DNA of 64,000 nt from Candidatus Omnitrophota bacterium. GTDB taxonomy: Bacteria > Omnitrophota > Omnitrophia > Omnitrophales > JACROU01. The stretch is from NCBI GenBank assembly GCA_029261035.1, contig JAJDCD010000008.1, positions 300,480 to 364,479 of the forward strand. The letters are read 5' to 3'. The notes under the pieces are model-generated. The model worked only from the letters and a program-made list of their open reading frames with translations, ran no database searches and was not told the origin of the DNA. The translations under genes were made by a program, and so were the position numbers. Below are positions 715 through 63,720 of the stretch, piece by piece (the first letter of the stretch is position 1; each line of letters opens with the position of its first letter).

Positions 715-3700
715 CTAAGCTGAAGTCAGAACTCCTTGTACGTAGTTCTTCCATTCTTGAGCCCATTTTTGAATTTGCTCTGACAAGAAATTTGAAGCAT
801 AAGAATCTCTAGAATTTAAATTAATAGAAGCTTTTTGTTCTGGTGAAAGCTCACTAAAAGATAAAACGGCAATTCTTCCACTCAACACACGTACAAAGGC
901 CAAATCAGAATCATAATTAACTTGTTTTTCAGACGTCAAATCATTATAGATTCGAACAGAGTCCCCATACCCAAGGCCTTCAATTCTCTCTGAAGCACCT
1001 AAAAACACGGTGTGATTCATCAGCCCAAGTAAACGGTTCGGCAACTTAATTCCATGCTGCATAATGCCTCTATAAACTTGATTCATAAGCTTATATTTCA
1101 AATATTTTTTCAGTTCTTTTTGACTGATATTCGTTAGGACAATCACATCAAAACGATCTCCAATCACTTTCTGAACCCCATCCATTTGTGATTGAATTCG
1201 ATCAACCACGGATTGAACCTGAGTTACATCAGACCCCGTATAAATCAACCTGACAAATAATTCAGGATGAACTTTTAAGTTAGCAAGAATGCTTTGAATA
1301 TCACTTTCAGATAAAGGAGTATCTTCAATAACTTCGATTTGCAAACCCACTCCCCATTTTAGATCTGTAAGTAAAGTTGAAGCTTTCTGTAACAGATTTA
1401 CTTCTGTTTGAACATTCGATTCAAAATTGCCTGTATCTTCTTGTGATTGAGCGGAAGCTTTTAAATCAACCAGTTCTTCGATAAGAGTTCTCATAATAGC
1501 AATAGAAAATCCTTCAATTCTTTTTGAAAGACTTTCATAAGTAGGTAGAACAGAACCTAATGCAAGTGATGTGGATAAAACCAAAGATCTATTAAAAGAA
1601 GTCTTTTCAGAATTCAGCAAGGTTCCTAAACTGCGCGCAGTCACTCCACCAAGTTCCAATACAAGAGTTGACTGGTGCGGATTCGCGTCGCCCGTAACTT
1701 GTGTAGAAAGAAGTTCTACTTGAACAATCTTGTCTCGGTCTAGAGCCGCTAAAGGAGAGTTTGCTCCAGAAAATATACTGAGTCCTACATTCTGATTTTC
1801 AACTCCTTGGAACAAAAGGCTTTCTGCAATTGCTCCACTATTATCTGTAAAACGAATAATAAATTGTTGAGGCACATCCGTTGTTGTGCGAAGTAAATTT
1901 ATATCTAACTGATCTCCTAAGACAAAAAATGTATTGGGTTGAGTCGGAGTTAAAATAAACCCGCTTTCAGTATTTGTGGAATCTGTTGCAAAATTTAATG
2001 TTAGCTGCTCTGGATTTTGAGCATTCTGAGTTAAACTCGTTCCGCTAGAAGAATTACCTGTCTTTGTGAAGTCTGCATTTTGAGTAGGGTCAATGTTTCC
2101 AAGAGCTGCAAAGCTAGTTGTACTTAGAGCTGGAAAAGAGGCTCCTATACTAGTTTCACTTGAAGCAGCAAAGCCTTGAATTTCAACAATAACTTCCCCT
2201 GTCATTGTCTGGTCATCAGAAAGAACCAAATTAAGCTCTAAAACTTGTGCTAAATCAAAACCTGTAGGAATAGTTGCTGGGTCCAATAGAATTTCAAAAA
2301 CATGGTTATTAGCGGCTACCTGTTGAGCTAGAGTTTTGTATACTTCTCCTGCCCTATCTTTCAACTCAACTATAATACTAGAAGGAATACTCCCTGAAGC
2401 AAACTGAACATTCATACGAAATAAGCCATTCAAATTATTGAAATTCATAAAATCTTCAGGATCGGTAGGCTGAGGGGTGTCATTATTATTAGTCGTAATT
2501 TGCAAACCAGAAAATTCACCATTTTCTGTTTTAAATATTAGTTTAACTTTATTAGCCCCTATCCTCTGAACTGTTGTTCCAGGAACAGAGCCTCCTAATG
2601 TTTTAATTTCTGGAATTCTAGGGTTTGATGAGACAACTACAACAGAACTCAAACTTGTAGTCATCGCTGTTGGAACAGAATTTTGAGCTGTTATTCTTCT
2701 TAAAGAATTCACTCCTTGAAAAGTCACTCTCAGATCCCCCTCAAAACTGCCAGAAACAGATGTGTTCTGACTACTAATCAAACTAATCTCTAAAATACGA
2801 GTTAAGATCAAATTAACACTGGATAAAGGAACCCGTAAAGTCGCTTTAGAACCATCAAATTGAGTGATAGAAAAAGACTTGCTAAACGTAATTCCCATTT
2901 CATCAACAAACTGAACTTTAAATTCATTCGGTAAGTCCCCTGAAATTTTCTCAATATTGAATACTATTTCTGAAAAGGAAGAAATATCCATAAAGTCTTC
3001 GGCTGTTTTATTAGCAATCACTCCATTATCATCTTTATTATCTTTGGTAATAGTAACTCCACTATAATCAAAATTATTATTTGGATTTGTTGGCTGAGCA
3101 GTATGCTTATAGTGCCAAATAACACTATTCTGACTATCAAAAAAGACTGTCGTTTCTATGTTGCTGCCCCCCGTGACCTCTGCGAAGGATGTCCTTAATT
3201 GCCTAGGAAACAAAGTAGTACTGCTATCTACTACAGCCGGCTGAGACACGGCAATCTGCGGCAGACCAGCTGCAGTTCCAGAAGATCCAGAGTCACCTCC
3301 ATGATGACAAGCAGAAAGAGCAAAACTAACTAATCCTAATAGCATAACCATCTTTAAAGACGAAAGAGTAAACTTAAACCGAGGCAGATAACCCTTCAGA
3401 GTTCCACCCAAACTTCGAGCCATCAAAACATCTTCTTTAACAGACTGCTGGTTTTCTAATGCACTATCTAATTCTAATAAATTCCCTACCGAAAACTGAA
3501 CACCTGGTCTAAAGCTTTTCCAAGAAATCCTTAGTAGGGCCACTCCTTCAGAATCCAAAATAGGTAACACCTGAATCTCTTCACCCATAAATAAATCATT
3601 CTTTCTTAACTCTAATTGAAGAGTATGGGCTAACGATTGCAAATCTAATCTAGAGTCTGAATTTTTCACCAAATCAGTTATAGCTTCATGGATGCCCACT

Positions 3701-5460
3701 TTCACAAAAGCTTCCATCATCCATTTAACACGGTTGCGATCCCAAGCACCTAAGTCACTCTGATAGCCTTCTGCCATAAAAAGCTCCGGAACAATGTAAG
3801 ACTCAACAGGCTTCCTACTCTCTTGAACACGCCCTAATAAAACTTCTTCATAAATTTCAGATAAATACTGATCCCCTTCAGTACCTGTTTGATAAACTTG
3901 AGGAGCTATACTGATAAATCCTAAACCCCTACGCTTCATCTCTTCTTGAATTCCTTTTGTATGATACCCTCCAGTTACAAATGCAATAGCTGACGTCTTA
4001 TGTCTGTGACTTAAATGAACTAAATTATCAACAAATGATATTTCCCTCTGCTCTGCACCGTCATAAAACTCTAATGCTAATCGATATTGTTGAAGCAATG
4101 AAGATTTGGTTTCATTAAAATATTCAAAAAAATCAAGATCTAACCCCTCTACGGAAACCCCTAAAGAATCTATTATATTCTCCGATCTGCTTCTCACATG
4201 ATCTAAATCAGAACGTGAAGCTTCTAAAAACAACACTCTTTTCAATAAATGAAACTCTCTTTCAGCATGGATAAGTTCTTCTTCGTCATTAGATTTAGCC
4301 ATATTTCTTTCTAATCGGTATACCAACTGATCAAACTCATTAAAGAAAGCCGTTCCTTCAATCTCTTCCTTTAATATAAGATTTTTTAGAACCCTTAATA
4401 TTGAGGGAAAAGAGTCCCAACCATTAGAACTTTTGACAACATAAGTATGTAATTGCTCAAACATCTCTCTCCAAGTTTTATAATGAGCACTTAATTTAGG
4501 ATCTATTAAATTCATTGTTATTAATTCATGAATTAAAGCATTTAAGTTCAAAAGAGCATGCTTTTCATCCCTGAGTAATGCCCGCAAATTCTCTAACTCC
4601 TCAGAAAAAGTTTCAGCGCTATATTCCTCTGATTCATTTATAAGGAAATACATTCTATAAAGGTTGGGGTAATCTAGTTGAATTAAAGGATTTTCAAAAT
4701 CAAGAGCAAGTCTTTCCTCTGCCTCTTTTAAAGTTTTCTTATAAAAGTAAGGCGCATTCATAGATTTTCTATTTTGAAATGTTTGATATAACTGGTCATA
4801 CTTCAAAAGTTGAGGGTTATAGAAATTTGTTTTAAGCTTTGCTATTTTTAAATCTACTTGTTTCAATTCTTTCTTTACATCAACCTTTTCTTTAAGTGCT
4901 TTTCGAAACAACTTTATATTATCTTTATACCTATCCAAATCCTCTATCCCGCTTACATTGATCTCCGTAGAAGATCCACTCTGTTCTAAAACAAAAAGCT
5001 CGCCACCTGTAATAAGTCCTTTTTCTAATAAATAATTCGCAATTACTAAATTATTATTTTTATTTTCCGTGATCTTTAAGACATTCGGGTCTATTTTTTT
5101 ATGTGCCCCTTCAAAAGCAAACGTGTTTATATTGTAAGTATCTTTTACGTATTTTAATAAATGAGAAATCTTTCTTTGAATTGGAGCATTTGTATGGGCA
5201 TCTTGAATATGAATAAAAGTTGGGAGTTTCTGTGTTTCTTGTTTTGGTAATCGAAAATGTTGAATACTTCCAATATTTTCCGGAACAGAAAAACCTTTGA
5301 GCACTTTTATATTTTCGAAAGAATTAGCTTTAGGATTGATAGTAATGCTAGAAAAGTTAATTGGAGTTTGAGAGAAAACACTTGAAGAAATCATCATGAT
5401 CACAACTAAAAGAGAAATAATTTTTATATTATTTTTATAACTCATATGATTACCCTTCAC
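715..5460 (-). CDS. Giant secreted protein (1581 aa). N-terminal signal peptide, conserved N-terminal domain shared with the 17993-22651 paralog, and an internal hydrophobic lipobox-like segment (MVMLLGLVSFALSAC)
   Basis: Long ORF with a signal peptide. Shares QDAH and GG[YF]H motifs and a block of about 450 aa with the second giant ORF. Confidence 0.75.
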   Translation of the reverse strand: MKGNHMSYKNNIKIISLLVVIMMISSSVFSQTPINFSSITINPKANSFENIKVLKGFSVPENIGSIQHFRLPKQETQKLPTFIHIQDAHTNAPIQRKISHLLKYVKDTYNINTFAFEGAHKKIDPNVLKITENKNNNLVIANYLLEKGLITGGELFVLEQSGSSTEINVSGIEDLDRYKDNIKLFRKALKEKVDVKKELKQVDLKIAKLKTNFYNPQLLKYDQLYQTFQNRKSMNAPYFYKKTLKEAEERLALDFENPLIQLDYPNLYRMYFLINESEEYSAETFSEELENLRALLRDEKHALLNLNALIHELITMNLIDPKLSAHYKTWREMFEQLHTYVVKSSNGWDSFPSILRVLKNLILKEEIEGTAFFNEFDQLVYRLERNMAKSNDEEELIHAEREFHLLKRVLFLEASRSDLDHVRSRSENIIDSLGVSVEGLDLDFFEYFNETKSSLLQQYRLALEFYDGAEQREISFVDNLVHLSHRHKTSAIAFVTGGYHTKGIQEEMKRRGLGFISIAPQVYQTGTEGDQYLSEIYEEVLLGRVQESRKPVESYIVPELFMAEGYQSDLGAWDRNRVKWMMEAFVKVGIHEAITDLVKNSDSRLDLQSLAHTLQLELRKNDLFMGEEIQVLPILDSEGVALLRISWKSFRPGVQFSVGNLLELDSALENQQSVKEDVLMARSLGGTLKGYLPRFKFTLSSLKMVMLLGLVSFALSACHHGGDSGSSGTAAGLPQIAVSQPAVVDSSTTLFPRQLRTSFAEVTGGSNIETTVFFDSQNSVIWHYKHTAQPTNPNNNFDYSGVTITKDNKDDNGVIANKTAEDFMDISSFSEIVFNIEKISGDLPNEFKVQFVDEMGITFSKSFSITQFDGSKATLRVPLSSVNLILTRILEISLISSQNTSVSGSFEGDLRVTFQGVNSLRRITAQNSVPTAMTTSLSSVVVVSSNPRIPEIKTLGGSVPGTTVQRIGANKVKLIFKTENGEFSGLQITTNNNDTPQPTDPEDFMNFNNLNGLFRMNVQFASGSIPSSIIVELKDRAGEVYKTLAQQVAANNHVFEILLDPATIPTGFDLAQVLELNLVLSDDQTMTGEVIVEIQGFAASSETSIGASFPALSTTSFAALGNIDPTQNADFTKTGNSSSGTSLTQNAQNPEQLTLNFATDSTNTESGFILTPTQPNTFFVLGDQLDINLLRTTTDVPQQFIIRFTDNSGAIAESLLFQGVENQNVGLSIFSGANSPLAALDRDKIVQVELLSTQVTGDANPHQSTLVLELGGVTARSLGTLLNSEKTSFNRSLVLSTSLALGSVLPTYESLSKRIEGFSIAIMRTLIEELVDLKASAQSQEDTGNFESNVQTEVNLLQKASTLLTDLKWGVGLQIEVIEDTPLSESDIQSILANLKVHPELFVRLIYTGSDVTQVQSVVDRIQSQMDGVQKVIGDRFDVIVLTNISQKELKKYLKYKLMNQVYRGIMQHGIKLPNRLLGLMNHTVFLGASERIEGLGYGDSVRIYNDLTSEKQVNYDSDLAFVRVLSGRIAVLSFSELSPEQKASINLNSRDSYASNFLSEQIQKWAQEWKNYVQGVLTSA

Positions 5461-5718
5461 ATATTAACTTTAATTTTATTAAACATTTTTTAATATATTA
5501 ATAAAGATTGTTAAAAGTTAGCACATAGCTGAAAAATTGTCAAACTTAAAGTATTATTGAGATATATTGAGATATAAGGGTTTATTAAGAATATTTAGAG
5601 ATATATAAGGATAATTACTTATAAATGGTCTAAAATGGTGTTTTATATAAAGAATTTATAGAATTAGCTTATAAGTGAATTACTTAAAATATCTAATTTT
5701 GAGAGATAATGAAGAAAA

Positions 5719-5795
5719 TGGTGGGCGATGGAGGGATCGAACCCCCGACCTTCTGAATGTAAGTCAGACGCTCTAACCAGCTGAGCTAATCGCCC
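5719..5795 (-). tRNA. tRNA-Val (anticodon TAC)
   Basis: Reverse complement folds as a cloverleaf: acceptor GGGCGAT/ATCGCCC, D-stem GCTC/GAGC, anticodon stem TCTGA/TCAGA with loop CTTACAT, T-arm GGGGG-TTCGATC-CCTCC, discriminator A, encoded CCA. Confidence 0.85.
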
Positions 5796-5797
5796 AC

Positions 5798-6190
5798 AAG
5801 AGGGGTAATACTTACTACTGTTATAACCTTACAAAACTTCTTAGAACTTTCAAGTTCTTGTCCTTCACCTTCTGGTGGAGGGAGCTAATCGCCCTAATTC
5901 GTAGGATATTCGGTATTATTATATACTTCCGGTACTAATTATCAATTACTACTACTTGTCCTTCACCTTTGGTGGAGGAAGCTAATCGCCCACAAGAGGT
6001 GTAATACTTAAAGTGTATATAACCTTACAAAACTTCTTAGGACTTTCAACCACTTGTCCTTCGCCCTATGGCGGAGGGAGCTAATCGCCCACAAGAGGGG
6101 TAATACTTACTACTGTTATAACCTTACAAAACTTCTTAGGACTTTCAACTACTTGTCCTTCAGCCAAGCTGGAGGAAAGCAGTCGCCCAC
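5798..6190. repeat. Tandem array of four approximately 120-bp units, each a copy of the tRNA-Val upstream region plus a degenerate internally deleted tRNA-Val stub (…ggagggagctaatcgcccac…)
   Basis: The 13 nt from the tRNA 5' acceptor/D-arm (gagctaatcgccc) plus the following 2 nt (ac), fused to a T-stem/CCA remnant (tggtggagg), recur at about 5873, 5980, 6070 and 6168. The approximately 75-bp segment found upstream of the real tRNA recurs between them. Confidence 0.8.
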
Positions 6191-6302
6191 TAAGATATAA
6201 TACTAATACAAAGATTTCTATCGAAATAGTTCTACGAGAATAGTTTTTCGAGAAAGTAGTATACTAAATTATATAAGAATGTAAAGGCTTAAGAACAAGA
6301 AA

Positions 6303-7835
6303 TTAAGCTCTTTGTGTGACGAATGCAGTTACTTCTACATTGGGGCTATTCACTCTCTCAACATTAAGTAAAGCTAATGTTTGAGTACCTTCTTCAAAAA
6401 GTAATATATTATTTCCGGGAGCCAATTGAGTTCCTGCTGAACGAACAAACTCCTGAGCTATATTTACACTAATTAGTCTACTCGCAAGATCATCAAAAGC
6501 TGAACTTCCATTATTTTTAGCAATATATAAATCTGTGTTACTAGATGGTGAAGGGAATATACTGGGTGTTCCGGAAGCAAGAAAAGTTCCTGCAACTTCA
6601 TTTGGAACTGAAGAAACTGGAGCAAATTTTAATTGTAGTGTAGCAAAATCAATAAAGATAGATCCTCCACCAGCAGAAAAGCTAAAGCTTTGACGAATAC
6701 CAACATTATCACCCGGCTCATAACTCAACCTTATATCAAAAGGACCACTTTTAGTACCAAGCTTAGGATCAAAGACAAAAGAATTAAATACATCTAAAGT
6801 TCCATCACCAAATTTAGCTGTATTAGCAATTGCATAAGCACTATCTCCGGAATCCTGAATCAGTTCTATTCCAGTTGTTCCAAACCCTTGACTCGATCCA
6901 CCATCTATATCTTCGTTATATTTAATTGAAGGATTAAAACCAATAGCATCATTTCCATAACTGCCTCTAATTCCAATTTGGCCGATAGGATTTTGCGATA
7001 ACTCCAAACCATCTTCAGGCACATTCAAAAGAGCCCCTAGAGCTTTAGCAATATCAATTCTTCCTTTTGTTGATACCGCACTACTTGAACCTGAATCAAT
7101 TCCTTGATTAGTATTCCCTTGATTGTTAATAGCATCATTTCCACTTCGACCGCTAATAGTAGGTGTATTTAAGTTTGTTCCTGGTTGATTAGGAATTGTT
7201 CTTGAATCAAGATCAATAGTTTTTCCATCAACACCCACACTTCCCTCTCCTCTTCTTACTCCATAACCTTCTAAAGCGTCTTCTGCGCCTTGTGTAATAT
7301 CTGCATGAGCGGACTTAAATAACGAAAACCCTGTTTTGTTATTAGCAACAACAATTTGGCGTGGCTGAATTCTAAATGTTGCAGAAGAACCTGAAGAACG
7401 AGTAAGAATTATCTTCCCACTATCTCGATCCGTAATCTCTCGTGTCCACCTATATTGAACTGTAATCAAAAGAGGGTTCCCTCTTTGAACTTCAACGCTA
7501 TCAATTCCATTTAAAACCAGGCGTATATTCTCAACCAAATTATGATCTTCACGTATACTCACAGCAAAGTCAGCTTTTCTAAAACCTCTATCATTGGAAT
7601 AATCATCTGCAATGTATTTCATTACAGAACTATAATTACCTTTACTATACGAATCAAAAATTTTTCTTAGTGTTAAACTAGCAATTTGTTTTAACAGATT
7701 CTCATCAGCTAGTTTAACAAACTCTTCTTCTGAAATAACTGTTTTTGAAAACACGCTAGGATTAGGAACCACAGAACTAACAAAGAATACGCTAATCAAA
7801 ACAAAAATTTTAAGTGGTGTAATTATTTTTTTCAT
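6303..7835 (-). CDS. Secreted Gly/Ser/Asn-rich hypothetical protein (510 aa)
   Basis: Signal peptide MKKIITPLKIFVLISVFFVSSVV. Last gene of a tightly spaced minus-strand operon. Confidence 0.7.
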   Translation of the reverse strand: MKKIITPLKIFVLISVFFVSSVVPNPSVFSKTVISEEEFVKLADENLLKQIASLTLRKIFDSYSKGNYSSVMKYIADDYSNDRGFRKADFAVSIREDHNLVENIRLVLNGIDSVEVQRGNPLLITVQYRWTREITDRDSGKIILTRSSGSSATFRIQPRQIVVANNKTGFSLFKSAHADITQGAEDALEGYGVRRGEGSVGVDGKTIDLDSRTIPNQPGTNLNTPTISGRSGNDAINNQGNTNQGIDSGSSSAVSTKGRIDIAKALGALLNVPEDGLELSQNPIGQIGIRGSYGNDAIGFNPSIKYNEDIDGGSSQGFGTTGIELIQDSGDSAYAIANTAKFGDGTLDVFNSFVFDPKLGTKSGPFDIRLSYEPGDNVGIRQSFSFSAGGGSIFIDFATLQLKFAPVSSVPNEVAGTFLASGTPSIFPSPSSNTDLYIAKNNGSSAFDDLASRLISVNIAQEFVRSAGTQLAPGNNILLFEEGTQTLALLNVERVNSPNVEVTAFVTQRA

Positions 7836-17992: not shown

Positions 17993-20900
17993 TTATGCAG
18001 CGCGGGAAATGAGGAGTTGAGATTCGTTCGCTTGAATTAATGCTAAAAGAGATTCTTTAACAACAGAAAAGAACCCGTCTACTTGTTTTAATCCATACTC
18101 CATCAAAAACAAATTCTTATCTTTAGCTTGAGTGTAAAGTAGAGCTACACCCAGAAGCCCATTGTCATCATTAGGATATCTAAACTTATTACCCCCTATT
18201 AAAGCAAAATCCTTGGAAGGATCTACGGTACGTGAAAGGTGTAAATTATGCTTCGCTTTACGAACTTCTTTAGATGCTTTCTGCTCGCTATGAGAAGTAA
18301 AGTAAATATTAGGAAGGTTAAGTAAAGGGTGTTTGTTGAACGGACTTGCATTTACGACTACCACCTGAAGTTGTTTTTTGTTTCTTAACGCATATTTAAA
18401 TATTTCATCCAGTTGTTCTCGAGAGAAGTTTTTCAAATCTTCATAATTAATAAATAAATTTACTCGCTCTTTAAAAGAACTCAAAGTTGTAATATCCAAC
18501 TTGCTTTGAATCGTTGGCACGACAGCCCCCAAACTCTTCGCATCCGAAAGCCTTCTTTCATTCGGGTGTAATAGTTCAGGAAAATGCTGGCCTAAGTATT
18601 TATACCTATCACTTAGTGGCGCATACCAAACCTTAAGACTTCCATCTTCTGTAGCTGTTGCCAGACGACTTCCATCAGGGCTAAACAAAACAGAAAGAAC
18701 TGGGCTATCATGTACAAGGGGCTCGCCAAGTAAGCGCTGTGTTTTTTCTTTCCAAATACGGACAGTACCGTCATCGCTAGCTGTGGCTACCTTATCACTC
18801 TTAGGGCTTAAGACCGCCGCATTCACAGCTTGATCATGCCTCAGCTTCTTGCCAAAACGACTTGCTTTCTTTGTGTTTCTATATAACTGTCCATAATCGT
18901 TGCTCGCAACTAAAATACGGTTTCCATCAAAATTATAATCTACGTCAGCAACTGCATTTTTGTGTTTTATTTCTTCTCCCACCAGTTCTCCCGCAGCAAT
19001 GTCCCACCGATGTATCGAGTAATCTTCAGTCACGGTAAGCATCTCTGATCCTGTTCTATTAAAACGAACTAAAACCACTTTCTTCTCGTGAATAAAAACT
19101 TTTTCCAATTTCTCCCCTGATTCTCTTTGCCAAAGATAAACATGTTTATTCGATTGACTAAGAGTTGCAACCAACTCCCCACCAGGGCTCATAACTGCAA
19201 AGCTAACTGTTCCAAGAAAAGTCTTAAGTTTCTTAATAATGGGCTCTCCCGTCTCTACATCTAAAATTTGAGCTGCCTTATCTTTGCCATAAGTAACTAG
19301 CTGTAAACCATCTGGGCTAAACCTTTCTCTTCCCCTATTACTAGAAGAAAGCAACCGTTTTACTCCTAACTTCTCTTCCCACAACGAAGGAGATCCCGTA
19401 GCAAGTTCTAATTTTCTTTCTCCATTTTCTCCTGTAACAATTTTTAATACCCCACCCGTTCCCTTGCTTGTTTTCTTAGAGATAGATGCTCGTAACCTTT
19501 CAGATCTAACCATCTTTCTCACAACATTACTTTCCACCAAAAGATGTGATCCCTGTGGATTGAACTCTATATTCGTAATTGATCCATCCAATTTCAAAAA
19601 CTCTCCAACGGGACTTTGTTTTCTTTTATCAACATCCCAAACACGAACATTACCTTCATTGCCTCCTTCAACAATGTGGGTAGCATCTGGATAAAAAGCC
19701 ATTTTTCCTCCACCCCCTGAGCCTGCTTCCATTAAAAACGAATCCTTAACGGGTTGAGACCAATCAAAAACACCTTCAGAATCTATTCTTTGATTAATAA
19801 CTCGTAATACATTTGTTGTTGAAAGCATTTGTTCTAATACTTTTTTATTTTTTGCATAAATTGATTCAAATAGTATTTTCCTTATTCGTAGAAGGTCTTC
19901 TGGCCTAAGCTGGCTGACCCATTCCAACATTTCAGACTCACGAGAAAGACCTAATAGGACAAGTCGTTTTTGTTCTTTGAAATTAGGGTCCGAAAGAGAG
20001 AATGCCAAATCCCACGCTTCACTAAAATCCGGGTTATCTATAAAGGACTCTCCATCCCAAACATACTTACCCGTAGCAGAGTCTTCCTTTGGTTTAGATG
20101 GCACATCCCCTTGTTTATCACTGATAACCATCGTTCTGCCAGAGTCTTTAACTTTCCTAATCTCTACTCTCATAACCTCTACAACACGGGTTAAAAATTG
20201 TGTTGTATTGCTACCTTCATAGATATTTCTTAAATCAATATTCATTTCTGATAAAAATTCCAAAGTTATATCTCTGACACTCGGTTCAAGAGGGGCCATC
20301 ATATCATCCATGCTTCCAAAAATTTGAGTGTTAATGAACAACTCTAGATCATTAGGGTGAACAGCTTTTGCTAACAAATCTTTTGCTAGTTTATGTTCTA
20401 ACGTTTCTCCCTGACTTGATCCTAAAGATTGACCTTCATGTTCTTCTGCTACTCCTACAGCGTCCGAATGTTGCGTCAAAAACTCGGATAAAGGCTGCTT
20501 TGCTAAACGAACAGCTTTAATTTCTATAATTCTGTCTCCTCCTCCAAGCCAAGTAAGTGTGATATGAGTTAAAGGCTTTTCGGATGGAATTAATCCAACT
20601 TGCATTAACTTCCAATAATTATCTCTACCTAATTGAATATTAGCTGAAGCTAAACGAGTATCATAAGAACCTTCAGAATAATTCCATAATTCTAATAACC
20701 ATAAACCACCATCTACTGTCGAAGGGTTTCTGAATTTGATATTTACAAAATTATAATCTGATAAATCTCTCGCCCATTCCAACTTCATCCTTGCTCTTGG
20801 ATCTTCTTGAGAACCTCCTTTATTTTCATAAAAAAGAAGAGTCTCCCTCCCTGGCTTAGCCATTCTTGTGAAGAATTTAGATCCCATAGCCTCATCGTGG

Positions 20901-22651
20901 GTATAATCTAAAAGAATCGGGCCACCTTCTGGCAAGTCAACATAGAACCCTGGGTAATATTTAGAATCCGACGCTAAGCGAATAGATCTGTCTCCAGATT
21001 CTACTGAACCATAAGAAAAGACTGGCGTAGATGGTTCAGGTTTCATGGTTTGATGAATTGAACAAGACACAAGTGTGAGAACACCTCCTAAAGCTGCCAA
21101 ACCAATGGCTCCCGAAAAAAGACGCTTTAAACCCTTTCCCAAACTCGCTGCATTAGATAATACAAAACCTTCTGGATAGGCATTAAATATAAAAGGGTCT
21201 CTTTCCTTAACATCTGCTGACGGAAACACGCCTACTTCTCTTTGCCTTTGCATTAACCGAAGTCTTTGTCTTTGAGCATCAACATCCCTTAAAGCAATCT
21301 CGAAAAAAGAATGTGGCCTGGAGGCTTCACTCATTGTCTTAACATCTTCAATGCCAACACTATCTTCAGACATAATCCTTTTATATTGAGCTTGATGACG
21401 AGAACTTATTTCAGAAATACGAGGAGAAACAACAACATAGGACACACCTTTATCTTTAAGAATTTGCTTAATCGCATTTGAATGGAACCCACCAAAAACA
21501 AGAATGGCCAAATTTTCTTGAGAAAAATCGACAAACTTTCCTATATGGTTTTTTATAGACTGATCTCTAGCATTAGCAATTTCATAAAAACGAATAGATT
21601 TTTCAATATTCGATTCCCATCTCTTAGAAAGTACAATAGACTTTTTTCCATAAGAAGAAATAAAATCAATGCATTCCCGCGTATTTAAAGAGGCAAGAGA
21701 ATCTTTAACAACTTCATACTCCTCCTGAGTAATTTCTACCGCATTCAATCTTTCCAGAAGAGCAAATCCCTTATGATATCCCCAGAGCTTTAAATCCCTT
21801 TCACTATCTAAATATTGAGAAACAAGATCGTTCTCCATCAACTCAACTTCAGCAAACAAAGTCTTAGCATCTATTTTTTTCATCTGTTCTTGAGATCCTT
21901 TTACATCCACCTGCTCTAGTTCTCTTAGTAAAGCAATCGAAGGGTACCTTGAATCCAAATCTATGTTACTTAATAGCTTTTCGGTTCTTTTTAAATAGTC
22001 GAATAAATTCAATTCTTTCCTATCCAATTTTCCTCTAAGTTTCATCCATCGTTTAAGCTCATTCGGAAAGTATCTTTCTGTTAAAACTTTTATTTCTTTT
22101 TGAAGCTCACGCAGGTCGACCTTAACTTGTTGTTTAACAACAGAGGATTCTTTGTATGCCTTAATGTTTTCTAAATGCAGTTTTATTTTATCAACACCTA
22201 TCAATTTAAAATCTTTTTTACGATTAATATGAGCATACTCCGCACCGCTAATCCGAAGTTGATCCATCAAGTCAAAAGATACTTTTTCTTTAACTTTAGG
22301 ATCTTCTATGTCCCCAAAGAACTCATCACTAGGAACAGGTCCTTCATAACCTTCTTCAAAAACAGTTTGAATCCCATTTTCACTCACCATATATTGTATT
22401 ATTTTTGATATGTTCTCTTGCGCTTCTAGAGAGTCGTGCGCATCTTGAATATAGATAATTGTTTTATCACTCTTTCCAACAAAAGACTCTTCCACAGAGC
22501 CCCATTCTTTGGGAATAGTAATCGAAGCCTCCGGATCCGCATACCCCGATGGAGCATATTGAAGAACCGTGAAAAACATGAATGAAATAGACAGAAAAAT
22601 AGCGGTGGGCTTATAAAATAGATGAGGTTTTAACTTAATTTGAAACTTCAT
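17993..22651 (-). CDS. Giant secreted protein (about 1550 aa), paralog of 715-5460. Conserved N-terminal domain, internal lipobox-like segment (LAALGGVLTLVSC), C-terminal WD40 β-propeller
   Basis: Probable start at internal Met MKFQIKL… (ATG 22649-22651, signal peptide ending GYA). WD40-type repeats with VWD/LWQ/RWD/IWK/VWY motifs. Confidence 0.75.
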   Translation of the reverse strand: MKFQIKLKPHLFYKPTAIFLSISFMFFTVLQYAPSGYADPEASITIPKEWGSVEESFVGKSDKTIIYIQDAHDSLEAQENISKIIQYMVSENGIQTVFEEGYEGPVPSDEFFGDIEDPKVKEKVSFDLMDQLRISGAEYAHINRKKDFKLIGVDKIKLHLENIKAYKESSVVKQQVKVDLRELQKEIKVLTERYFPNELKRWMKLRGKLDRKELNLFDYLKRTEKLLSNIDLDSRYPSIALLRELEQVDVKGSQEQMKKIDAKTLFAEVELMENDLVSQYLDSERDLKLWGYHKGFALLERLNAVEITQEEYEVVKDSLASLNTRECIDFISSYGKKSIVLSKRWESNIEKSIRFYEIANARDQSIKNHIGKFVDFSQENLAILVFGGFHSNAIKQILKDKGVSYVVVSPRISEISSRHQAQYKRIMSEDSVGIEDVKTMSEASRPHSFFEIALRDVDAQRQRLRLMQRQREVGVFPSADVKERDPFIFNAYPEGFVLSNAASLGKGLKRLFSGAIGLAALGGVLTLVSCSIHQTMKPEPSTPVFSYGSVESGDRSIRLASDSKYYPGFYVDLPEGGPILLDYTHDEAMGSKFFTRMAKPGRETLLFYENKGGSQEDPRARMKLEWARDLSDYNFVNIKFRNPSTVDGGLWLLELWNYSEGSYDTRLASANIQLGRDNYWKLMQVGLIPSEKPLTHITLTWLGGGDRIIEIKAVRLAKQPLSEFLTQHSDAVGVAEEHEGQSLGSSQGETLEHKLAKDLLAKAVHPNDLELFINTQIFGSMDDMMAPLEPSVRDITLEFLSEMNIDLRNIYEGSNTTQFLTRVVEVMRVEIRKVKDSGRTMVISDKQGDVPSKPKEDSATGKYVWDGESFIDNPDFSEAWDLAFSLSDPNFKEQKRLVLLGLSRESEMLEWVSQLRPEDLLRIRKILFESIYAKNKKVLEQMLSTTNVLRVINQRIDSEGVFDWSQPVKDSFLMEAGSGGGGKMAFYPDATHIVEGGNEGNVRVWDVDKRKQSPVGEFLKLDGSITNIEFNPQGSHLLVESNVVRKMVRSERLRASISKKTSKGTGGVLKIVTGENGERKLELATGSPSLWEEKLGVKRLLSSSNRGRERFSPDGLQLVTYGKDKAAQILDVETGEPIIKKLKTFLGTVSFAVMSPGGELVATLSQSNKHVYLWQRESGEKLEKVFIHEKKVVLVRFNRTGSEMLTVTEDYSIHRWDIAAGELVGEEIKHKNAVADVDYNFDGNRILVASNDYGQLYRNTKKASRFGKKLRHDQAVNAAVLSPKSDKVATASDDGTVRIWKEKTQRLLGEPLVHDSPVLSVLFSPDGSRLATATEDGSLKVWYAPLSDRYKYLGQHFPELLHPNERRLSDAKSLGAVVPTIQSKLDITTLSSFKERVNLFINYEDLKNFSREQLDEIFKYALRNKKQLQVVVVNASPFNKHPLLNLPNIYFTSHSEQKASKEVRKAKHNLHLSRTVDPSKDFALIGGNKFRYPNDDNGLLGVALLYTQAKDKNLFLMEYGLKQVDGFFSVVKESLLALIQANESQLLISRAA

Positions 22652-22817
22652 TGACGCTCTATTCTCCCAAAGACAATAAGGAGAAATATACCACATCTCC
22701 CCCCTGTTTCCAGTCATTAGAGGATGATTTAAGTAAACAATAACCCTAACTTTTGCGGGAGTAAGTGGTTATGAAAATAGAAGGTTTTTATAGATTTAAA
22801 GAATAAGGCGGGGTTAG

Positions 22818-27379: not shown

Positions 27380-27787
27380 TGGTGGAGGCGGAGGGAATTG
27401 CACCCTCGTCCAAAGAAATTATTAAAAGAGGTCCTACATGCTTAGTTTTTTCTTTTAATTTAACCGCTTAAGCTCCGAAAAAACAGGATCAGAAGCAGCG
27501 ATTCCCTTTAAAGTTTCGGAACAAAACCAGAGACCTGTTTTATTCCTATCCTGCTAAATTACATCTAAAAGCGCCCGCAGGCTGAAGCTAATAGATGTCG
27601 CTGAACCTAATTAGGCAGCGAGTGGTAGAGCAACAGGAGCAAAATTCACATTGTGAAGTTCTACTCTGTCACCCAGACTGATGTTCTTATCAGCATTTAT
27701 GTTTTGTGAGGTGTTTTAAGAGGCCTCCCCACCACCTCTGCATGCACGCTCTTCCACTAACATTCTCTGTCGATGCTAGTCGCCCCC
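27380..27787 (-). ncRNA. ssrA: tmRNA (SsrA)
   Basis: 5' GGGGGCGACUAGC… pairs with 3' …GGACGAGGGUGCAAUUCCCUCCGCCUCCACCA (tRNA-like acceptor plus T-arm). Internal tag reading frame …NFAPVALPLAA followed by UAA UAG. Adjacent to smpB. Confidence 0.85.
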
Positions 27788-27887: not shown

Positions 27888-28364
27888 TCACTTTTTCATA
27901 GATTGCTTCACACTTCGATCAATTTCTCGCTGAGCAATCTTCTTTTTTAGATCGTCACGCTTATCAAAGTGCTTTTTACCTTCGCAAACGGCTATTTCTA
28001 ACTTAACCCATCCACGCTTAAAGTATAGCTTAATTGGGATACAAGTGAAACCTTTTCGTGTTACCTTTCCCATCAAACGTTCTATTTCTACTCTATTTAA
28101 CAATAACTTACGTTCTCTTACAGGGTCTGGAATATCAAAAGAAATGTGAGAGTATGGATTAATATGCAAATTAATCACAAAGGCTTGAGATCCTTTAAAA
28201 CGAACAAAGGAGTCACCTATGTTTACTCGGCCTTCACGAATGGACTTCACCTCACATCCAGCCAAGGAAATACCAGCCTCATACTTCTCTAAGACATGAT
28301 AATCGTGAAGTGCTTTTCTATTCGTTAAAACAACGCTATGTTTCTTCTGATCTTTTTTATTCAT
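27888..28364 (-). CDS. smpB: SsrA-binding protein SmpB
   Basis: Family signature (…KLYFKRGWVKLEIAVCEGKKHFDKR…). Immediately upstream of ssrA. Confidence 0.9.
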   Translation of the reverse strand: MNKKDQKKHSVVLTNRKALHDYHVLEKYEAGISLAGCEVKSIREGRVNIGDSFVRFKGSQAFVINLHINPYSHISFDIPDPVRERKLLLNRVEIERLMGKVTRKGFTCIPIKLYFKRGWVKLEIAVCEGKKHFDKRDDLKKKIAQREIDRSVKQSMKK

Positions 28365-28527: not shown

Positions 28528-28642
28528 TCGAGTCGGGGATGACAGCGTTTTTATATTTCAAATAGGGTGGTGTATTCTACTATCTAATAGGATAAAATCA
28601 AAATATCTTATATTGAGTCCTTAACAAATAAAAAAGGACTGC

Positions 28643-28676
28643 CCAAATAGGACAGCCCTTTTTACATTTTATAAAA
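28643..28676 (-). terminator. Putative terminator downstream of the PAS gene (A/T-flanked imperfect hairpin)
   Basis: aaaaaggactgcccaaataggacagccctttttac. Stem is imperfect. Confidence 0.3.
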
Positions 28677-44658: not shown

Positions 44659-44735
44659 GGTGGGCGTAGCTCAGTTGGTAGAGCCCCTGATTGTGGTTCA
44701 GGTTGTCGCGGGTTCAAGTCCCGTCGCTCACCCCA
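44659..44735 (+). tRNA. tRNA-His (anticodon GTG) with encoded G-1 and CCA
   Basis: G-1:C73 extra pair, acceptor GTGGGCG/CGCTCAC, anticodon loop TTGTGGT, T-arm GCGGG-TTCAAGT-CCCGT. Confidence 0.85.
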
Positions 44736-46546
44736 TTTGATACCCTCGGACGAACCGGATCTATTAATCCGGTCGTCGGGTTAAATTCCCGCGGCGGTCT
44801 GCCTCTTCCTTGAGGTTGGCCGCCATTTTGGCTAAACTTTAAGCGCTTCGCATTATTCCCATAGCACTTGCCAATTTCTTCTAAAGTTTCAGCCCAAATT
44901 TTTGTCAGACTGGTGTCAATCGCTGGTTTACAAAATAAACCTACAGTAATTTCTCCCGTCCAACTTTTCCTATCATAAACTTTACAAACCGCGTATCTAA
45001 TGAAGCCTGATAGTAAACTTTTCAACTTTTCCGGTTTATCTTCGCATGAATCAACAATCATCTCGAAAAGTTGAAGCGTTTGAATTTGTTCGCGAGCATT
45101 TCCTGCAAGCCTCGTCTCAGCCTTTAATTCCTGATCGAGTCTCCGTTCTTCCTGGTTGAGCTCGTCAATCTCTGTTTGCAATGCCCGGAGTCTATCTTTC
45201 ACGGTCTCCACCCCACAAACCCCCTTATCTGCTAGCACCTCAACTAAATTTTGAATCTTCTGTTCCGTTTGAGGCTTTAGGGCACGTACGCGAATCAAAT
45301 CTTCATCGAGATCTTTGATTCGGGAGTAACTGGCTTTATTAGCTTTGTTTATCACCTTTTCAATAATAGTGGGTCTCAACTTTAATCTTTTAAGAAATTC
45401 TATAACTGCTTGATCAATCGATTCAGCAGGCACATAAACACTTTCGCATTCTGCGCCGTCTGATTTGTCTGCCTTCGAGCACAAATAATAAGGGTAATAA
45501 CGTTTAACTCTCGATCCACCTATACCCGGTTTTGGCACCATTGATGATTGACAGCTTGGACATCTTAAAAGACCTTGCAGCAGATACACATATTTCTTTG
45601 TTGCATCAAGAGTTTTTCTGCTGTGATTTGTTTTCGAATTGCTCTTGATAATGTTTTGAATCTTTTCGTATACCTTCAGGTCCCGAATAGGCTTCCAGTT
45701 CCCGACGTAACGCTTTCCCTCATAATCCTGGTGACCTGCATACCGAATATTTTGAAGGATTCTTAAAACTTGCGGTTTTGTATAGGATTTACCACGTGGG
45801 GTCTTGTATCCCAGCCTCCTGAGTTCGCGAGCTACTTTATTTGAGCTTTCATGTTGGATATAAAGTCTGTCTATTAAATTTATATGTTTCTTAAAATTAT
45901 TATGAATTAGAAAAGTATGGTGACCATTCTTATCTCTTGTCATTTTATATCCAATGGGTGGTGAGCCAAGAGGACGTCCCTGCTGTACGTGTCTTACGTT
46001 AGTTTCTAAACTATACTGCGAAATGCGATCTGCTTGCCACTGCGCAAGATTGGCATGGTTACGCATAATCATTTGGCCATCAGGCGTTGATGTATCAATG
46101 TCTAAATCGAGACAAACTAATGCAACTCCGGACTCATTAAATTGTCCTGAAATCTGAATGTAATCTAGCAAGTTTCTGGCAATGCGATCCAGCTTTGTGA
46201 CCACAACCACATCAATCAAGCCGCTCTTTGCAAGCAGAAGCGCTTGCCTTAACCCCTCGCGTCCAAATATGGTCGTCGCCGTTTTTCCTCGCCGTTCCCC
46301 CTTCTCATTCTCGTTTTCAACAAAGATCTCCGTCAGCATCCACTTCTGAGGAGTTAGCATGGTGGATTTCGCTTTTACCCAGTTAGCGAGAACATCCTTC
46401 TGATGATCTAAGGATTCGCCAATCTTTTTCGCCTGCTTGTCTGATGACACCCTTGTAATGCCAAAGACACGAATAGTGTCCTTTTCTTTAAAGCTGTCAA
46501 TCGTTGTAACATTTTGCCATCTTCTTCGTCTCTTTCTCATGCTCAC
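44714..46546 (-). CDS. Large serine recombinase (resolvase domain, recombinase domain, zinc ribbon, coiled coil). C-terminus overlaps the tRNA-His 3' end
   Basis: GITRVSSDKQ catalytic Ser motif. DIDTSTPDG…LAQWQ. Cys-rich CPSCQ…C…C zinc ribbon. ORF stop lies inside the tRNA. Confidence 0.85.
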   Translation of the reverse strand: MSMRKRRRRWQNVTTIDSFKEKDTIRVFGITRVSSDKQAKKIGESLDHQKDVLANWVKAKSTMLTPQKWMLTEIFVENENEKGERRGKTATTIFGREGLRQALLLAKSGLIDVVVVTKLDRIARNLLDYIQISGQFNESGVALVCLDLDIDTSTPDGQMIMRNHANLAQWQADRISQYSLETNVRHVQQGRPLGSPPIGYKMTRDKNGHHTFLIHNNFKKHINLIDRLYIQHESSNKVARELRRLGYKTPRGKSYTKPQVLRILQNIRYAGHQDYEGKRYVGNWKPIRDLKVYEKIQNIIKSNSKTNHSRKTLDATKKYVYLLQGLLRCPSCQSSMVPKPGIGGSRVKRYYPYYLCSKADKSDGAECESVYVPAESIDQAVIEFLKRLKLRPTIIEKVINKANKASYSRIKDLDEDLIRVRALKPQTEQKIQNLVEVLADKGVCGVETVKDRLRALQTEIDELNQEERRLDQELKAETRLAGNAREQIQTLQLFEMIVDSCEDKPEKLKSLLSGFIRYAVCKVYDRKSWTGEITVGLFCKPAIDTSLTKIWAETLEEIGKCYGNNAKRLKFSQNGGQPQGRGRPPREFNPTTGLIDPVRPRVSNGVSDGT

Positions 46547-46590
46547 TCCATTTATTCATTTAGGTATCATATTATATACATAAATGGTAT

Positions 46591-46887
46591 TTATCGCATT
46601 ACTTTTTCCATACAATTTTCCGCCCATATTTCACTTAGCAAATCAATAATTTCTTCAATTCGCTCTTCATGATCCAGTAGGTTAAAGGGGTTCAGCGGAT
46701 TATCTTGCAACGCCTTATATTCATTATTACCTGCTATGCGCACGACAAAACATCCCCTACGCATTTTTAGGGGCTTTCCCTTCAAACATTTTTGTGGGAA
46801 AGGCATTTTCTTCTCCCTCTTTTTTGATCTTGCGATATTAATCACCTCCAAAGGTTTGAATAGCAAGACAACAGCCTTCAGCCTCAC
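46591..46887 (-). CDS. Small basic hypothetical protein (possible recombination directionality or regulatory factor)
   Basis: Position next to the recombinase only. No recognisable motif. Confidence 0.3.
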   Translation of the reverse strand: MRLKAVVLLFKPLEVINIARSKKREKKMPFPQKCLKGKPLKMRRGCFVVRIAGNNEYKALQDNPLNPFNLLDHEERIEEIIDLLSEIWAENCMEKVMR

Positions 46888-46920
46888 TGTTTGTCAATGA
46901 GACTGAAAGCTGATATTTTT

Positions 46921-47505
46921 TTAAACAAAACTTATCTGATCAATATAAAGCGACCCTGCTTTTGGCCTCGAATTTACATCGTCAAAAACGATCACAAATT
47001 CATTCAGGCTAGTCCAGTCATTGATTCGCCTGAATTTTTCAAAAGGGATCGTGACTCTTTGCCATTCACTGGTAATTCCACTTACCACGTATGCGGACGG
47101 TCTCGCGCTCATGTCCTTCAATTCAATTTTTATTCGATTCGTAAACTCTTTTTCGGCATCACCCTTCACAAAAAAGCTAAGCGAGTTGAATCTGCTTGCA
47201 TCCTCACCGTTTAGCTTCATCCAGAATCCGTTATATGCTGGATTCACAGAATCGACATCGTAATCCAATCTCACGGAATAGCCTGCCGAATCACCTAACG
47301 CATCATCCGGTTCAAAGGATAATTTCGTTCCTTGGGTATCATCATAAGGATCTTTATCCCAGGCTCCGAAATCACCTCCGATATTATTTGGTTTGTCTCC
47401 GGTATCAAAATCAGCTATCACGAGTTCGCTTTGTGCTGCGTTTACGACCGGACTAACCATCGCAAAAATCGCCATGACTAAAACAGCTGCGGTTTCTTTT
47501 TTCAT
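46921..47505 (-). CDS. Secreted CBM-like β-sandwich domain protein (paralog of the N-terminal domain of 31998-34148)
   Basis: ATG 47503-47505 with signal peptide MKKETAAVLVMAIFAMVSPVVNA. Shared motifs AWDKDPYDDT, YDVDS, GFWMKL, SEWQ, YIDQISFV. Confidence 0.7.
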   Translation of the reverse strand: MKKETAAVLVMAIFAMVSPVVNAAQSELVIADFDTGDKPNNIGGDFGAWDKDPYDDTQGTKLSFEPDDALGDSAGYSVRLDYDVDSVNPAYNGFWMKLNGEDASRFNSLSFFVKGDAEKEFTNRIKIELKDMSARPSAYVVSGITSEWQRVTIPFEKFRRINDWTSLNEFVIVFDDVNSRPKAGSLYIDQISFV

Positions 47506-47530
47506 TTGTAAGCACTCTCCTTTTTTTGAT

Positions 47531-48079
47531 TTAAAATATTGAAACAATGGAACCGAGGGTTCCATACTTATGCTTCGCCATGATCTTTCTGAATTCCGGA
47601 TCATTCACAAATTGCTTAAGCGCATCCTTCACAAGAAAGTCTGCGATGCGTTCCTTAGCTTCTGACTCCATAAAAGAATCAATCAACACCTCGTAGCCTC
47701 CTGACTTTTTCCCTTCATATTTAAGGACACCTTTTTCATTGATTACTCTGAGTTCGAGAACGAGTGCGGCTTTAACTGGCCGACTCAAGATATCCGGCGA
47801 TGAAAGCTCAAGTCCTCTCACTCTCAAGATGACCTTTTCACTATCCTTGCTTGAAACAAGTTCGATAATACCTTGCTGATCTTCATTCCTTTCAACCTCA
47901 AGACCCGTTTTAAGACCGATGTAATGAACCAAATAACGTGTAACCATATCTCGAAGACTATTATCAGTTGGGATTATCTCCTGACTCTCTTTTACTTTTT
48001 CGGTCATAACTTGGGGCACCGTGGCTGCACAGCCAATAACCAATGAGAGGAGTAATATCGCAAGACTTGAGATCCTCAT
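47531..48079 (-). CDS. Lipoprotein, hypothetical (182 aa)
   Basis: Lipobox LVIGCAAT. Confidence 0.55.
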   Translation of the reverse strand: MRISSLAILLLSLVIGCAATVPQVMTEKVKESQEIIPTDNSLRDMVTRYLVHYIGLKTGLEVERNEDQQGIIELVSSKDSEKVILRVRGLELSSPDILSRPVKAALVLELRVINEKGVLKYEGKKSGGYEVLIDSFMESEAKERIADFLVKDALKQFVNDPEFRKIMAKHKYGTLGSIVSIF

Positions 48080-49200
48080 GCTTTATTACCCTCTTCCGTT
48101 CGTTGTCTAATTTGGTGCTGCATAAAAAGATCACGGCCACGCTGAAGCTCTCGCTTGAGATCATCAGGTTTTGGGAGTTTAAGCTGATATTTTGAGACAA
48201 ATATTTTGTTACTCATGCCACCCGTGGCATACTTCACACATGCGCTACTTTTATTCGCGCACAATACAACGCCAATGGGATCGCTTTCTGCTTGTGGCAT
48301 TAAATGATCTTTTGCCCAGTTCAAATAGAGATTCATTTGACCGGCGTAAGCGTGTGTAAATCGTCCGATTTTGAGGTCCAATATCACATAACAATTTAAA
48401 GGAATATGATAAAGGACGAGATCCATTCGATACTCATCTCCATCCAGATTAAAACGCTTCTGTCGCGATACGAATGTGAATCCGGCTCCGAGTTCCAAAA
48501 GAAATCGTTCAAGGTGATGTATCAAGGCATCTTCAAGATCAAGCTCTGAATACTCATCTTTAAGATTCAAAAACTCAAGAACGTAGGAATCTTTTATTTC
48601 ATCTTCCGGCCGTACAATAATGGGATGTTCATTGGCTTTCTTTAAAACAAGATCTTTACGCTTTGACAGAGCTGTTCTCTCAAAAAGCGCCGCCTGAATT
48701 TCACGATCAAGTTGTCTTGCAGACCAATGGCTTCGCAGACACTCATTTTCATAGAATCTTCTTTTTACCGAATCATCCAACCTCATAAGCTGCCTGTAAT
48801 GTGACCAAGAAAGGCTAAAGGATCTGATCACATCACCTAATGCGGGCGCTTTGGCCAATTCGCTACACACCGTGTAGCGTTTTTCGATGCCTTTGTAGGT
48901 GAGGTAAAACTGCCGTATGGCTCTTAGATGGGCCTCACCCCACCCTTTTCCAAGCTTATGTTTAAGGTCTCCCGACAAATGCTTGAGTAAAGCCTCCCCA
49001 TAGCGAGCTCGATTCCTTCCTTTTTGCTCAAATTCCACGATCCTTCGGCCGGTCAACCAATAGGTAGCAACTAACGCAGCATTAACCTGCCTGACCACAC
49101 TCTCTCGGCCCTCATGAATTAAGGCTGATATGCTGTTGAGCAACTGCCGATAATCGTCCATCCGCACTGCGTTATTTCCTGATGATTTGAGATGCCTCAT
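48076..49200 (-). CDS. YhcG-like PDDEXK nuclease (DUF1016)
   Basis: N-terminal LVATYWLTGRRIVEFEQKGRNRARYGEALLKHLSGDL…GWGEAHLRAIRQFY is the hallmark of DUF1016/YhcG. C-terminal D…E.K-like block. Confidence 0.75.
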   Translation of the reverse strand: MRHLKSSGNNAVRMDDYRQLLNSISALIHEGRESVVRQVNAALVATYWLTGRRIVEFEQKGRNRARYGEALLKHLSGDLKHKLGKGWGEAHLRAIRQFYLTYKGIEKRYTVCSELAKAPALGDVIRSFSLSWSHYRQLMRLDDSVKRRFYENECLRSHWSARQLDREIQAALFERTALSKRKDLVLKKANEHPIIVRPEDEIKDSYVLEFLNLKDEYSELDLEDALIHHLERFLLELGAGFTFVSRQKRFNLDGDEYRMDLVLYHIPLNCYVILDLKIGRFTHAYAGQMNLYLNWAKDHLMPQAESDPIGVVLCANKSSACVKYATGGMSNKIFVSKYQLKLPKPDDLKRELQRGRDLFMQHQIRQRTEEGNKA

Positions 49201-50508: not shown

Positions 50509-50526
50509 ATAAATAAACTCCTTTTA

Positions 50527-51456: not shown

Positions 51457-51480
51457 TTTTATCTCTTCTCCTTTTATTTA

Positions 51481-54406: not shown

Positions 54407-54461
54407 AAAAAAATCTTCTCCTTCCAAATAGACTGTTTTTCTAGAAACTTTCCTTCGAACC

Positions 54462-54734: not shown

Positions 54735-54758
54735 TGTGATATTTCTCCTTTTTTAAAT

Positions 54759-55721: not shown

Positions 55722-55748
55722 AGTCGGCAGTCCACTCCTTAAAAGTTA

Positions 55749-61873: not shown

Positions 61874-61884
61874 ATTCTGTCCTT

Positions 61885-62202: not shown

Positions 62203-62231
62203 TTTTCTTTTACCTCCATTTATTCAAAAAA

Positions 62232-62317: not shown

Positions 62318-62368
62318 ATAGGGGCACGAAACACGATTTTTTGAATGAACTTTTAAGGGTGTTACTCT

Positions 62369-63001: not shown

Positions 63002-63043
63002 TTTGGTTCTCCTATTCCGCCGAACAGGGAGAACCCAACGCAC

Positions 63044-63714: not shown

Positions 63715-63720
63715 CTACTT

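Follow-up and report, generated by a model that had tools for sequence, protein, structure and literature searches.

The window, by which we mean the whole analysed stretch of 64,000 nucleotides, carries on its minus strand an intact tRNA-Val gene with an encoded CCA end (Table 1). This gene forms the 3' end of a tandem array on that strand: the 393 bp directly 5' of it consist of four head-to-tail units of 99, 97, 99 and 98 bp, each made up of a stub that reproduces tRNA bases 1-13, followed by a hairpin of 8 bp and then by some 66 nt of spacer (denoted S, H and P, respectively, and numbered from the unit adjoining the tRNA gene). Tandem Repeats Finder scores the array (5783-6161) at 437, with 3.9 copies of a 99-bp period, and a repeat search returns an 85-nt family of 84-96% identity in addition to a 22-nt family corresponding to the stub. 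No further copy of any part of the units was found in the 64-kb window; the tandem copying of DNA upstream of tRNA-Val is real and local. The first-pass annotation, made from the letters alone, had placed four such units on the 5' side of the tRNA, which is borne out, and had given them a length of about 120 bp, which exceeds the 97-99 bp found. Its view that the spacers copy the upstream flank of the tRNA holds for three of the four, the spacer of unit 2 being without detectable similarity.

Table 1. Features of the tRNA-Val locus, in window coordinates
Feature	Position	Strand	Remarks
tRNA-Val(TAC), intact, encoded CCA	5719..5795	-	ARAGORN; Rfam RF00005, 70.7 bits
Unit 1, adjoins tRNA-Val, 99 bp	5796..5894	-	S1 5882-5894, H1 5862-5881, P1 5796-5861
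Unit 2, 97 bp	5895..5991	-	S2 5979-5991, H2 5960-5978, non-homologous spacer P2* 5895-5959
Unit 3, 99 bp	5992..6090	-	S3 6078-6090, H3 6058-6077 (CCGCC/GGCG variant), P3 5992-6057
Unit 4, most distal, 98 bp	6091..6188	-	degenerate S4 6176-6188, H4 6157-6175 (CCAGC/GCTG variant), P4 6091-6156
Perfect 7+2+7 palindrome AGAACTTGAAAGTTCT over candidate -35 TTGAAA	5843..5858	-	only in the unit next to the tRNA
Near-consensus sigma-70 promoter TTGATA-16-TATAAT, 11/12, in P2*, facing the tRNA	5918..5945	-	consensus match
Promoter-like TTTACA-16-TATACT, 10/12	6258..6285	-	consensus match only; between the upstream ORF stop (6303) and the array

The stub, GGGCGATTAGCT(C), matches the 5' end of the tRNA at 13/13, 12/13 and 13/13 positions in units 1-3, and the identity extends to 15 nt if the preceding GT is counted, while the distal stub S4 is degenerate, with GTGGGCGA followed by diverged bases. 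The 22-mer GGGCGATTAGCTCCCTCCACCA occurs three times at no more than one mismatch, against an expectation of 0.00. Following the copy of tRNA bases 1-13, the stub continues with CCTCCA+CCA, which recalls the 3' part of the tRNA; the 8-mer TCCCTCCA is common to the stub and to tRNA positions 60-67, and in all four units the CCTCCxxC segment after the stub doubles as the 5' arm of the hairpin. The first reading of the locus had taken the stubs for collapsed mini-tRNAs, which on transcription would yield short acceptor-stem-like RNAs. This description is not sustained by the sequence. Neither ARAGORN nor Rfam, at E values up to 10, calls a tRNA in the stubs, and an acceptor minihelix cannot form from them because the 3' acceptor strand ATCGCCC is missing; folding of the stub region with RNAfold, a check proposed at the outset, accordingly gives not a minihelix of this kind but a 4-bp hairpin (GGGC/GCUC) beside the 8-bp H hairpin. 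Likewise, discrete short RNAs are not expected, since no terminator follows any of the stubs and transcripts would continue into the tRNA. We infer that the stubs are inert relics, neither tRNAs nor minihelices. Two further roles or relationships of the stub region were considered and dropped. The idea that the stubs act as decoys for the 3' acceptor strand of the tRNA derives from a 486-nt fold in which S4 pairs with that strand, but a transcript starting from the unit 2 promoter is predicted to fold the acceptor stem normally; and the 8-mer CAGAAGGT, shared by H1 and the variable region of the tRNA, is treated as a coincidence, being confined to unit 1 and in permuted order relative to the tRNA.

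The hairpins are present throughout the array. Their pattern, CCTCCxxC-loop-GxxGAAGG, occurs four times in the window, each time in the array, against 0.53 occurrences expected, and the module is absent both from the rest of the window and from 11 comparison loci. Pairing is complete, with 28 of 28 stem cells (seven pairs in each of four units) occupied by complementary bases; two of the pairs are altered on both sides (A-T to G-C and C-G to G-C), the loops vary freely, and the motif GAAGGA is conserved at the hairpin base in each unit. A covariation control, which concerns only four copies related by descent, gave 42 of 500 shuffles matching the observed covariation. In unit 4, substitutions are found at 2 of the 14 positions in the stem and at 9 of the 19 outside it (Fisher p=0.067), and the substitutions in S4 lengthen H4 to a hairpin of approximately 22 pairs (-20.7 kcal/mol, z -2.66), the fold z-scores of single units ranging from -0.4 to -2.6. 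A scan for terminators on both strands of 5400-6400 found no terminator-like site. The hairpins were therefore rejected as intrinsic terminators, the sequence that follows them, ACAAGUAGUUGAAAG, having no U run; a canonical terminator was found elsewhere in the window, e.g. at 28663..28631. In Rfam 15 no family other than tRNA itself is recognised in the array, further matches being far below the gathering scores.

The spacers P1, P3 and P4 are copies of the tRNA gene's own upstream flank, 84-96% identical, P1 and P4 agreeing at 63 of 66 positions and P3 agreeing with either at 58-61 of 67; a spacer 30-mer recurs three times in the array, against 0.00 expected. By contrast with these, P2* (55-65 nt) is nearly equal to the other spacers in length only: its alignment with P4 is no better than with shuffled sequence, and homology to the other spacers was for this reason rejected. 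The promoter-like site in P2* belongs to a small class, for matches to the sigma-70 consensus at 11 or more of 12 positions number only two on both strands of the 64-kb window (128 kb of strand). The transcription start would lie at about 5911, giving a leader of about 116 nt (S1-H1-P1), and in the predicted fold of such a transcript the leader forms a separate structure and the acceptor stem of the tRNA forms normally. The three P-type spacers carry a weaker site, TTGAAA-16-TAAGGT, matching at 8 of 12 positions, and the promoter-like site upstream of the array could, on its consensus match, transcribe the array as a whole. To judge from the tRNA-His promoter in the window (TTGATT-17-TATAAT), the organism would use canonical promoters. 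All three differences between P1 and P4 fall in the palindrome of unit 1 and perfect it; in a simulation, three random substitutions suffice for this in 1156 of 200000 trials (about 0.6%).

The same stretch of the P-type spacers can be read as a coding sequence. The repeats might encode small peptides, notably through a 10-codon ORF, TTG AAA GTY CTA AGA AGT TTT GTA AGG TTA TAA (MKVLRSFVRL), conceivably a leader peptide with Val codons for which GAAGGA, the 3' arm of the hairpin, would provide a Shine-Dalgarno-like motif; plus-strand ORFs such as MSFTFWWRELIA... are also candidates. In the three P-type units GAAGGA stands at an ideal distance (7 nt) from the TTG, the sole difference between units 1 and 4 in the ORF is synonymous (GTT/GTC), and a tiny ORF, tpr, is likewise present in the E. 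coli tRNA-linked repeats. However, the stop codon is gone in unit 3 and unit 2 has no such ORF, Val is specified by only 2 of the 10 codons, there is no terminator or antiterminator to control, and TTGAAA is equally good as a -35 hexamer; the plus-strand ORFs for their part differ non-synonymously among the units and have no ribosome-binding site. We regard a coding function as scarcely credible.

A comparison is provided by one relative, which was found by a metagenome scan with a 28-mer from the 3' part of the tRNA and is represented by locus L003 on a 2.17-Mb contig of GC 0.373; two additional loci, L010 and L011, comprise more of this contig together with a second assembly of the same organism. 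Its tRNA-Val (L003/L010) is identical to that of the window at 77 of 77 positions, and the gene order around it, namely TPR, HAD, CHASE2-GGDEF, FecR, ORFs of 108, 551, 170, 160 and 322 aa, tRNA-Val and a giant protein, is the same as in the window, where on the minus strand it extends from 15736 to 715. Protein identity amounts to 57-65% among the conserved members and to about 32% in the giant protein, and at the DNA level only the tRNA can be aligned. The relative has a single tRNA-Val gene separated from the upstream ORF by an 88-nt spacer, with no stub and no repeat. The first-pass annotation had proposed a comparison with syntenic relatives, in which intact tandem tRNA-Val genes without stubs would have told against its reading; the sole relative found thus offers no such picture.

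Searches further afield gave little. In the contigs of the genome collection neither the stub joint nor a 39-mer of the tRNA had a match (0 in each case), and a metagenome scan for the stub joint likewise returned 0 matches. BLAST searches with the array matched plasmids in the tRNA itself only and phages not at all; a viral match to an 18-mer of the stub lies on a contig of 68.5% GC without a tRNA and was judged to be due to chance. Five distant homologues of the giant protein lie on contigs (L001, L005-L009) that show no synteny and carry no tRNA-Val.

Since integration commonly targets tRNA genes and usually leaves a partial tRNA copy as its scar (PMC9897764), it has to be asked whether the stubs are att scars left by repeated site-specific integration and excision at tRNA-Val. 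As in att duplications, a tRNA fragment lies beside an intact gene (PMC9897764); the relative has a 25-nt direct repeat of the tRNA 3' end downstream of the gene, and the window itself holds a probable integrated conjugative element at tRNA-His. Yet att duplications are single 3' parts, separated from the gene by kilobases of foreign DNA and an integrase, whereas the array consists of four 5' fragments spaced 99 bp apart, with the tRNA's own upstream flank between them, in a syntenic neighbourhood. There is no integrase or foreign DNA at the site and no GC shift, and synteny with the relative holds for the genes to either side. Because gene order is kept there, the neighbourhood of the array does not constitute an island, nor do the stubs represent att scars, in agreement with the original remark that they are not integrase duplications. 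An origin by integration is effectively refuted.

The 3' repeat of the relative deserves description in its own right. At L003 11692-11957 (= L011 9254-9520) the 25-nt sequence CGATCCCTCCATCGCCCACCATAAA, which consists of the last 21 nt of tRNA-Val and 4 nt downstream, recurs exactly 241 bp downstream, and the same locus contains a duplicated 43-nt terminator hairpin, the copies being 88% identical. It is either a 3' tRNA-linked repeat in the E. coli style or an att scar, at the same gene as our array. On the other side of the relative's gene, at L011 9146-9201, a terminator-like hairpin (GGGGCCATCCTATCAGGATAGGCCC then TTTT) is found between a TATAAT and the gene, only about 12 nt before tRNA-Val; transcription of the relative's tRNA-Val would have to pass through it.

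That the array is an assembly artefact, i.e. a repeat expanded or joined chimerically when a draft or metagenome-derived assembly was made, seems very unlikely to us, even though the lineage appears to be poorly sampled. Artefactual expansions give identical copies, whereas the units differ from each other at 4-30% of positions and one spacer is unique, so that one unit can be told from another and ordinary reads could span the junctions.

On balance we consider it likely that the array is a tandem duplication of the tRNA-Val 5' flank, specific to this lineage and largely neutral. The duplication is probably recent: since the units are up to 96% identical and the orthologous intergenic DNA of the relative is unalignable, the expansion, or at least the homogenisation, would be younger than the split of the two lineages. 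The choice of a gain here over a loss in the relative would rest on the high identity of the units and on one relative, not on a phylogeny. Of the two origins put forward at first sight, replication slippage or decay of tandem gene copies, both belong to what is still the best reading, that is, local tandem duplication or decayed copies. A segment of about 99 bp, extending from an upstream hairpin through the leader and promoter region to tRNA base 13, would have been multiplied in place by replication slippage or by unequal crossing-over. Blocks would later have been copied between units, as the mosaic pattern of identity implies: over a block of 85 nt (the second half of H, spacer and stub) P4+S3 matches P1 plus the 5' end of the tRNA at 96% of positions, whereas between S4-H4 and S1-H1 about 29% of positions differ. 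The divergence itself occurs in blocks rather than as scattered point changes, being concentrated in the hairpin tips, in seven consecutive bases of P3 and in all of P2*, and we presume that these short blocks, including the entire spacer of unit 2, were replaced. As a result the one intact tRNA-Val would be preceded by one strong promoter-like site in unit 2, three weak copies and one distal site, all of them consensus matches, and, since no terminator intervenes, all transcripts would run into the tRNA as long hairpin leaders, to be removed by RNase P.

Two routes to the stub appear equally compatible with its joint. In one, full copies of the tRNA would have undergone two deletions, of bases 14-61 via a TC microhomology and of bases 68-74 from between a pair of CCA triplets. 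In the other, a partial duplication would have had its junction at CCTCCA, a 6-mer for which the probability of chance occurrence alone is about 1.4%. Tandem arrays of tRNA genes can decay by duplication followed by pseudogenisation, and the 8-mer TCCCTCCA with the TC and CCA microhomologies fits stubs derived from internally deleted tRNA copies; on the other hand, there is no intact second tRNA-Val here or in the relative, and the stubs share one deletion. As all stubs have the same joint, a single stub-bearing unit would have been amplified, rather than several genes having decayed separately. Two details sit less easily with simple duplication. Duplication of a [hairpin-spacer-stub] segment predicts a distal hairpin without a stub, yet every hairpin is preceded by one, so that an eroded fifth unit must be assumed; no similarity to the units was found in the 114 nt that precede S4, the alignment being no better than with shuffled sequence. 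Nor is the equal-length, non-homologous spacer of unit 2 explained by duplication alone. Small tandem repeats also flank the locus (TTCTACGAGAATAG x2.8 at 6216-6254, immediately upstream of the array, and TATTGAGATA-like 10-mers x2-4 at 5555-5613, downstream of the tRNA), and the whole intergenic region seems to be prone to slippage.

A different interpretation gives the array a function, as a regulatory leader or a promoter cassette in which each unit combines a hairpin with a promoter module. The hairpins might then serve as RNA insulators, processing sites or stabilisers, or as cruciforms or protein-binding sites in the DNA; the multiple promoters might tune the expression of tRNA-Val, with the unit 1 palindrome over TTGAAA as an operator. 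Several of the features described above favour this interpretation: the stems are fully paired, with two pairs changed on both sides and free variation in the loops; the changes in unit 4 largely spare the stem and those in S4 extend it; the replaced spacer of unit 2 both keeps the unit length and holds the 11/12 promoter; and the differences between P1 and P4 build a perfect palindrome, which would rarely arise by chance. The relative, too, has a stable hairpin between TATAAT and tRNA-Val. Against this, only four sequences are available and they are related by descent, 42 of 500 shuffles reach the observed covariation, and the bias in unit 4 has a Fisher p of 0.067; the folds of single units are weak by z-score. 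Templated (quasi-palindrome) mutation can mimic compensatory change at hairpin tips, and would produce such changes without selection. Moreover, no Rfam family is matched, the module is absent elsewhere in the window and in the comparison loci, and the relative manages without the array. A functional cassette is in our estimation rather unlikely, although the compensatory pairs, the extended hairpin of unit 4 and the palindrome in P1 do suggest, on thin support, that the DNA of the array is not purely neutral.

Among known systems, the closest kind to the array is that of the tRNA-linked repeats (TLRs) of E. coli (Egan & Landy 1978; Rudd 1999, as summarised in PMC8144298). There are 22 TLRs at ten loci, with 1-5 per locus, situated downstream of tRNA or rRNA genes and each containing 18-19 bp identical to the 3' end of the gene; their function is mostly unknown, and some are processed into small RNAs (PMC8144298). 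In K-12, our check of tyrT/tyrV gave a period of 178 bp and 3 copies of 95% identity, overlapping the 3' end of tyrV. Both kinds of repeat are short tandem copies abutting a stable-RNA gene, each with an exact piece of the gene end and a spacer, and both were presumably made by local duplication; the four units of the array lie within the copy number of TLRs. The differences are positional above all. TLRs are found downstream, among terminators, and carry 18-19 bp of the 3' end, whereas the array lies upstream, among promoter-like sequences and without a terminator, and carries 13 nt of the 5' end with a possible remnant of the T-stem; there is also no sequence similarity between the two. Since two defining positional features fail, the array is not a member of the TLR family and is, by analogy, better regarded as its upstream, 5'-end mirror image. 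The literature on tRNA-linked repeats retrieved by text search describes no upstream form, and the 258 nt downstream of tRNA-Val in the window contain no copy of the tRNA 3' end.

A second parallel is offered by the tandem promoters of stable-RNA operons, such as P1 and P2 of the E. coli rrn operons. As in that case, several promoters about 100 bp apart could feed one stable-RNA gene; the rrn promoters, however, are not duplicates of each other and are not accompanied by gene stubs, and the promoters of the array are consensus matches only.

It is conceivable, though we hold it to be improbable, that the units are selected tRNA-linked repeats of the 5' side, a class undescribed so far, acting either as an insulated multi-promoter cassette or as the source of a multi-hairpin RNA released by RNase P. 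By analogy, an RNA so released could be the precursor of a small RNA or of a protein sponge, with one GAAGGA in each unit; the TLR RNAs RrA, RrB and RrF, which bind Hfq and CsrA, provide the parallel for this idea. Were the modules functional, the poorly understood tRNA-linked repeats would be extended to the 5' side, and the locus would represent natural tuning of expression by amplification of promoter and leader, rather than of the gene, in an uncultivated, probably Omnitrophota-like lineage. If, as we prefer to think, the array is only a scar of duplication, it would exemplify a tRNA flank that was amplified and then homogenised. For annotation there is a caution in it, namely that short tRNA fragments are not always scars of integration.

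Both ORFs flanking the array are near-orphans. The 510-aa ORF on its 5' side (6303-7835, -) has no homologue but itself in a search of 5.8 billion proteins, and only its first 157 residues can be aligned (34%), to the 160-aa ORF of the relative, which has two ORFs of 160 and 322 aa in the corresponding position; the gene is very fast evolving or remodelled. The window contains two giant ORFs, one encoding 1581 aa (715-5460, -) and without a match in Pfam or NCBIfam, the other encoding 1574 aa (17993-22717, -) with a C-terminal WD40 propeller. Among the named homologues of the relative's ortholog of the 1581-aa protein, giant proteins from Candidatus Omnitrophota MAGs predominate (20-28% identity), which hints weakly at the affiliation of the organism.

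Elsewhere in the window, the region 44660-64000 holds a probable integrative conjugative element, situated at the 3' terminus of tRNA-His (44660-44735, +). The gene for a large serine recombinase of 610 aa (44714-46546, -) adjoins this terminus or overlaps with it, and TrbI-like, CagX-like and VirB4/TraC genes come next, the GC content rising from approximately 0.37 to approximately 0.42. As the window contains the 3' end of tRNA-His only once, the far end of the element is placed outside the window. Finally, a tmRNA of 408 nt, for which an unusually long tag (ADKNISLGDRVELHNVNFAPVALPLAA) is predicted, is located directly downstream of smpB (27380-27787 and 27888-28364, respectively, both -).
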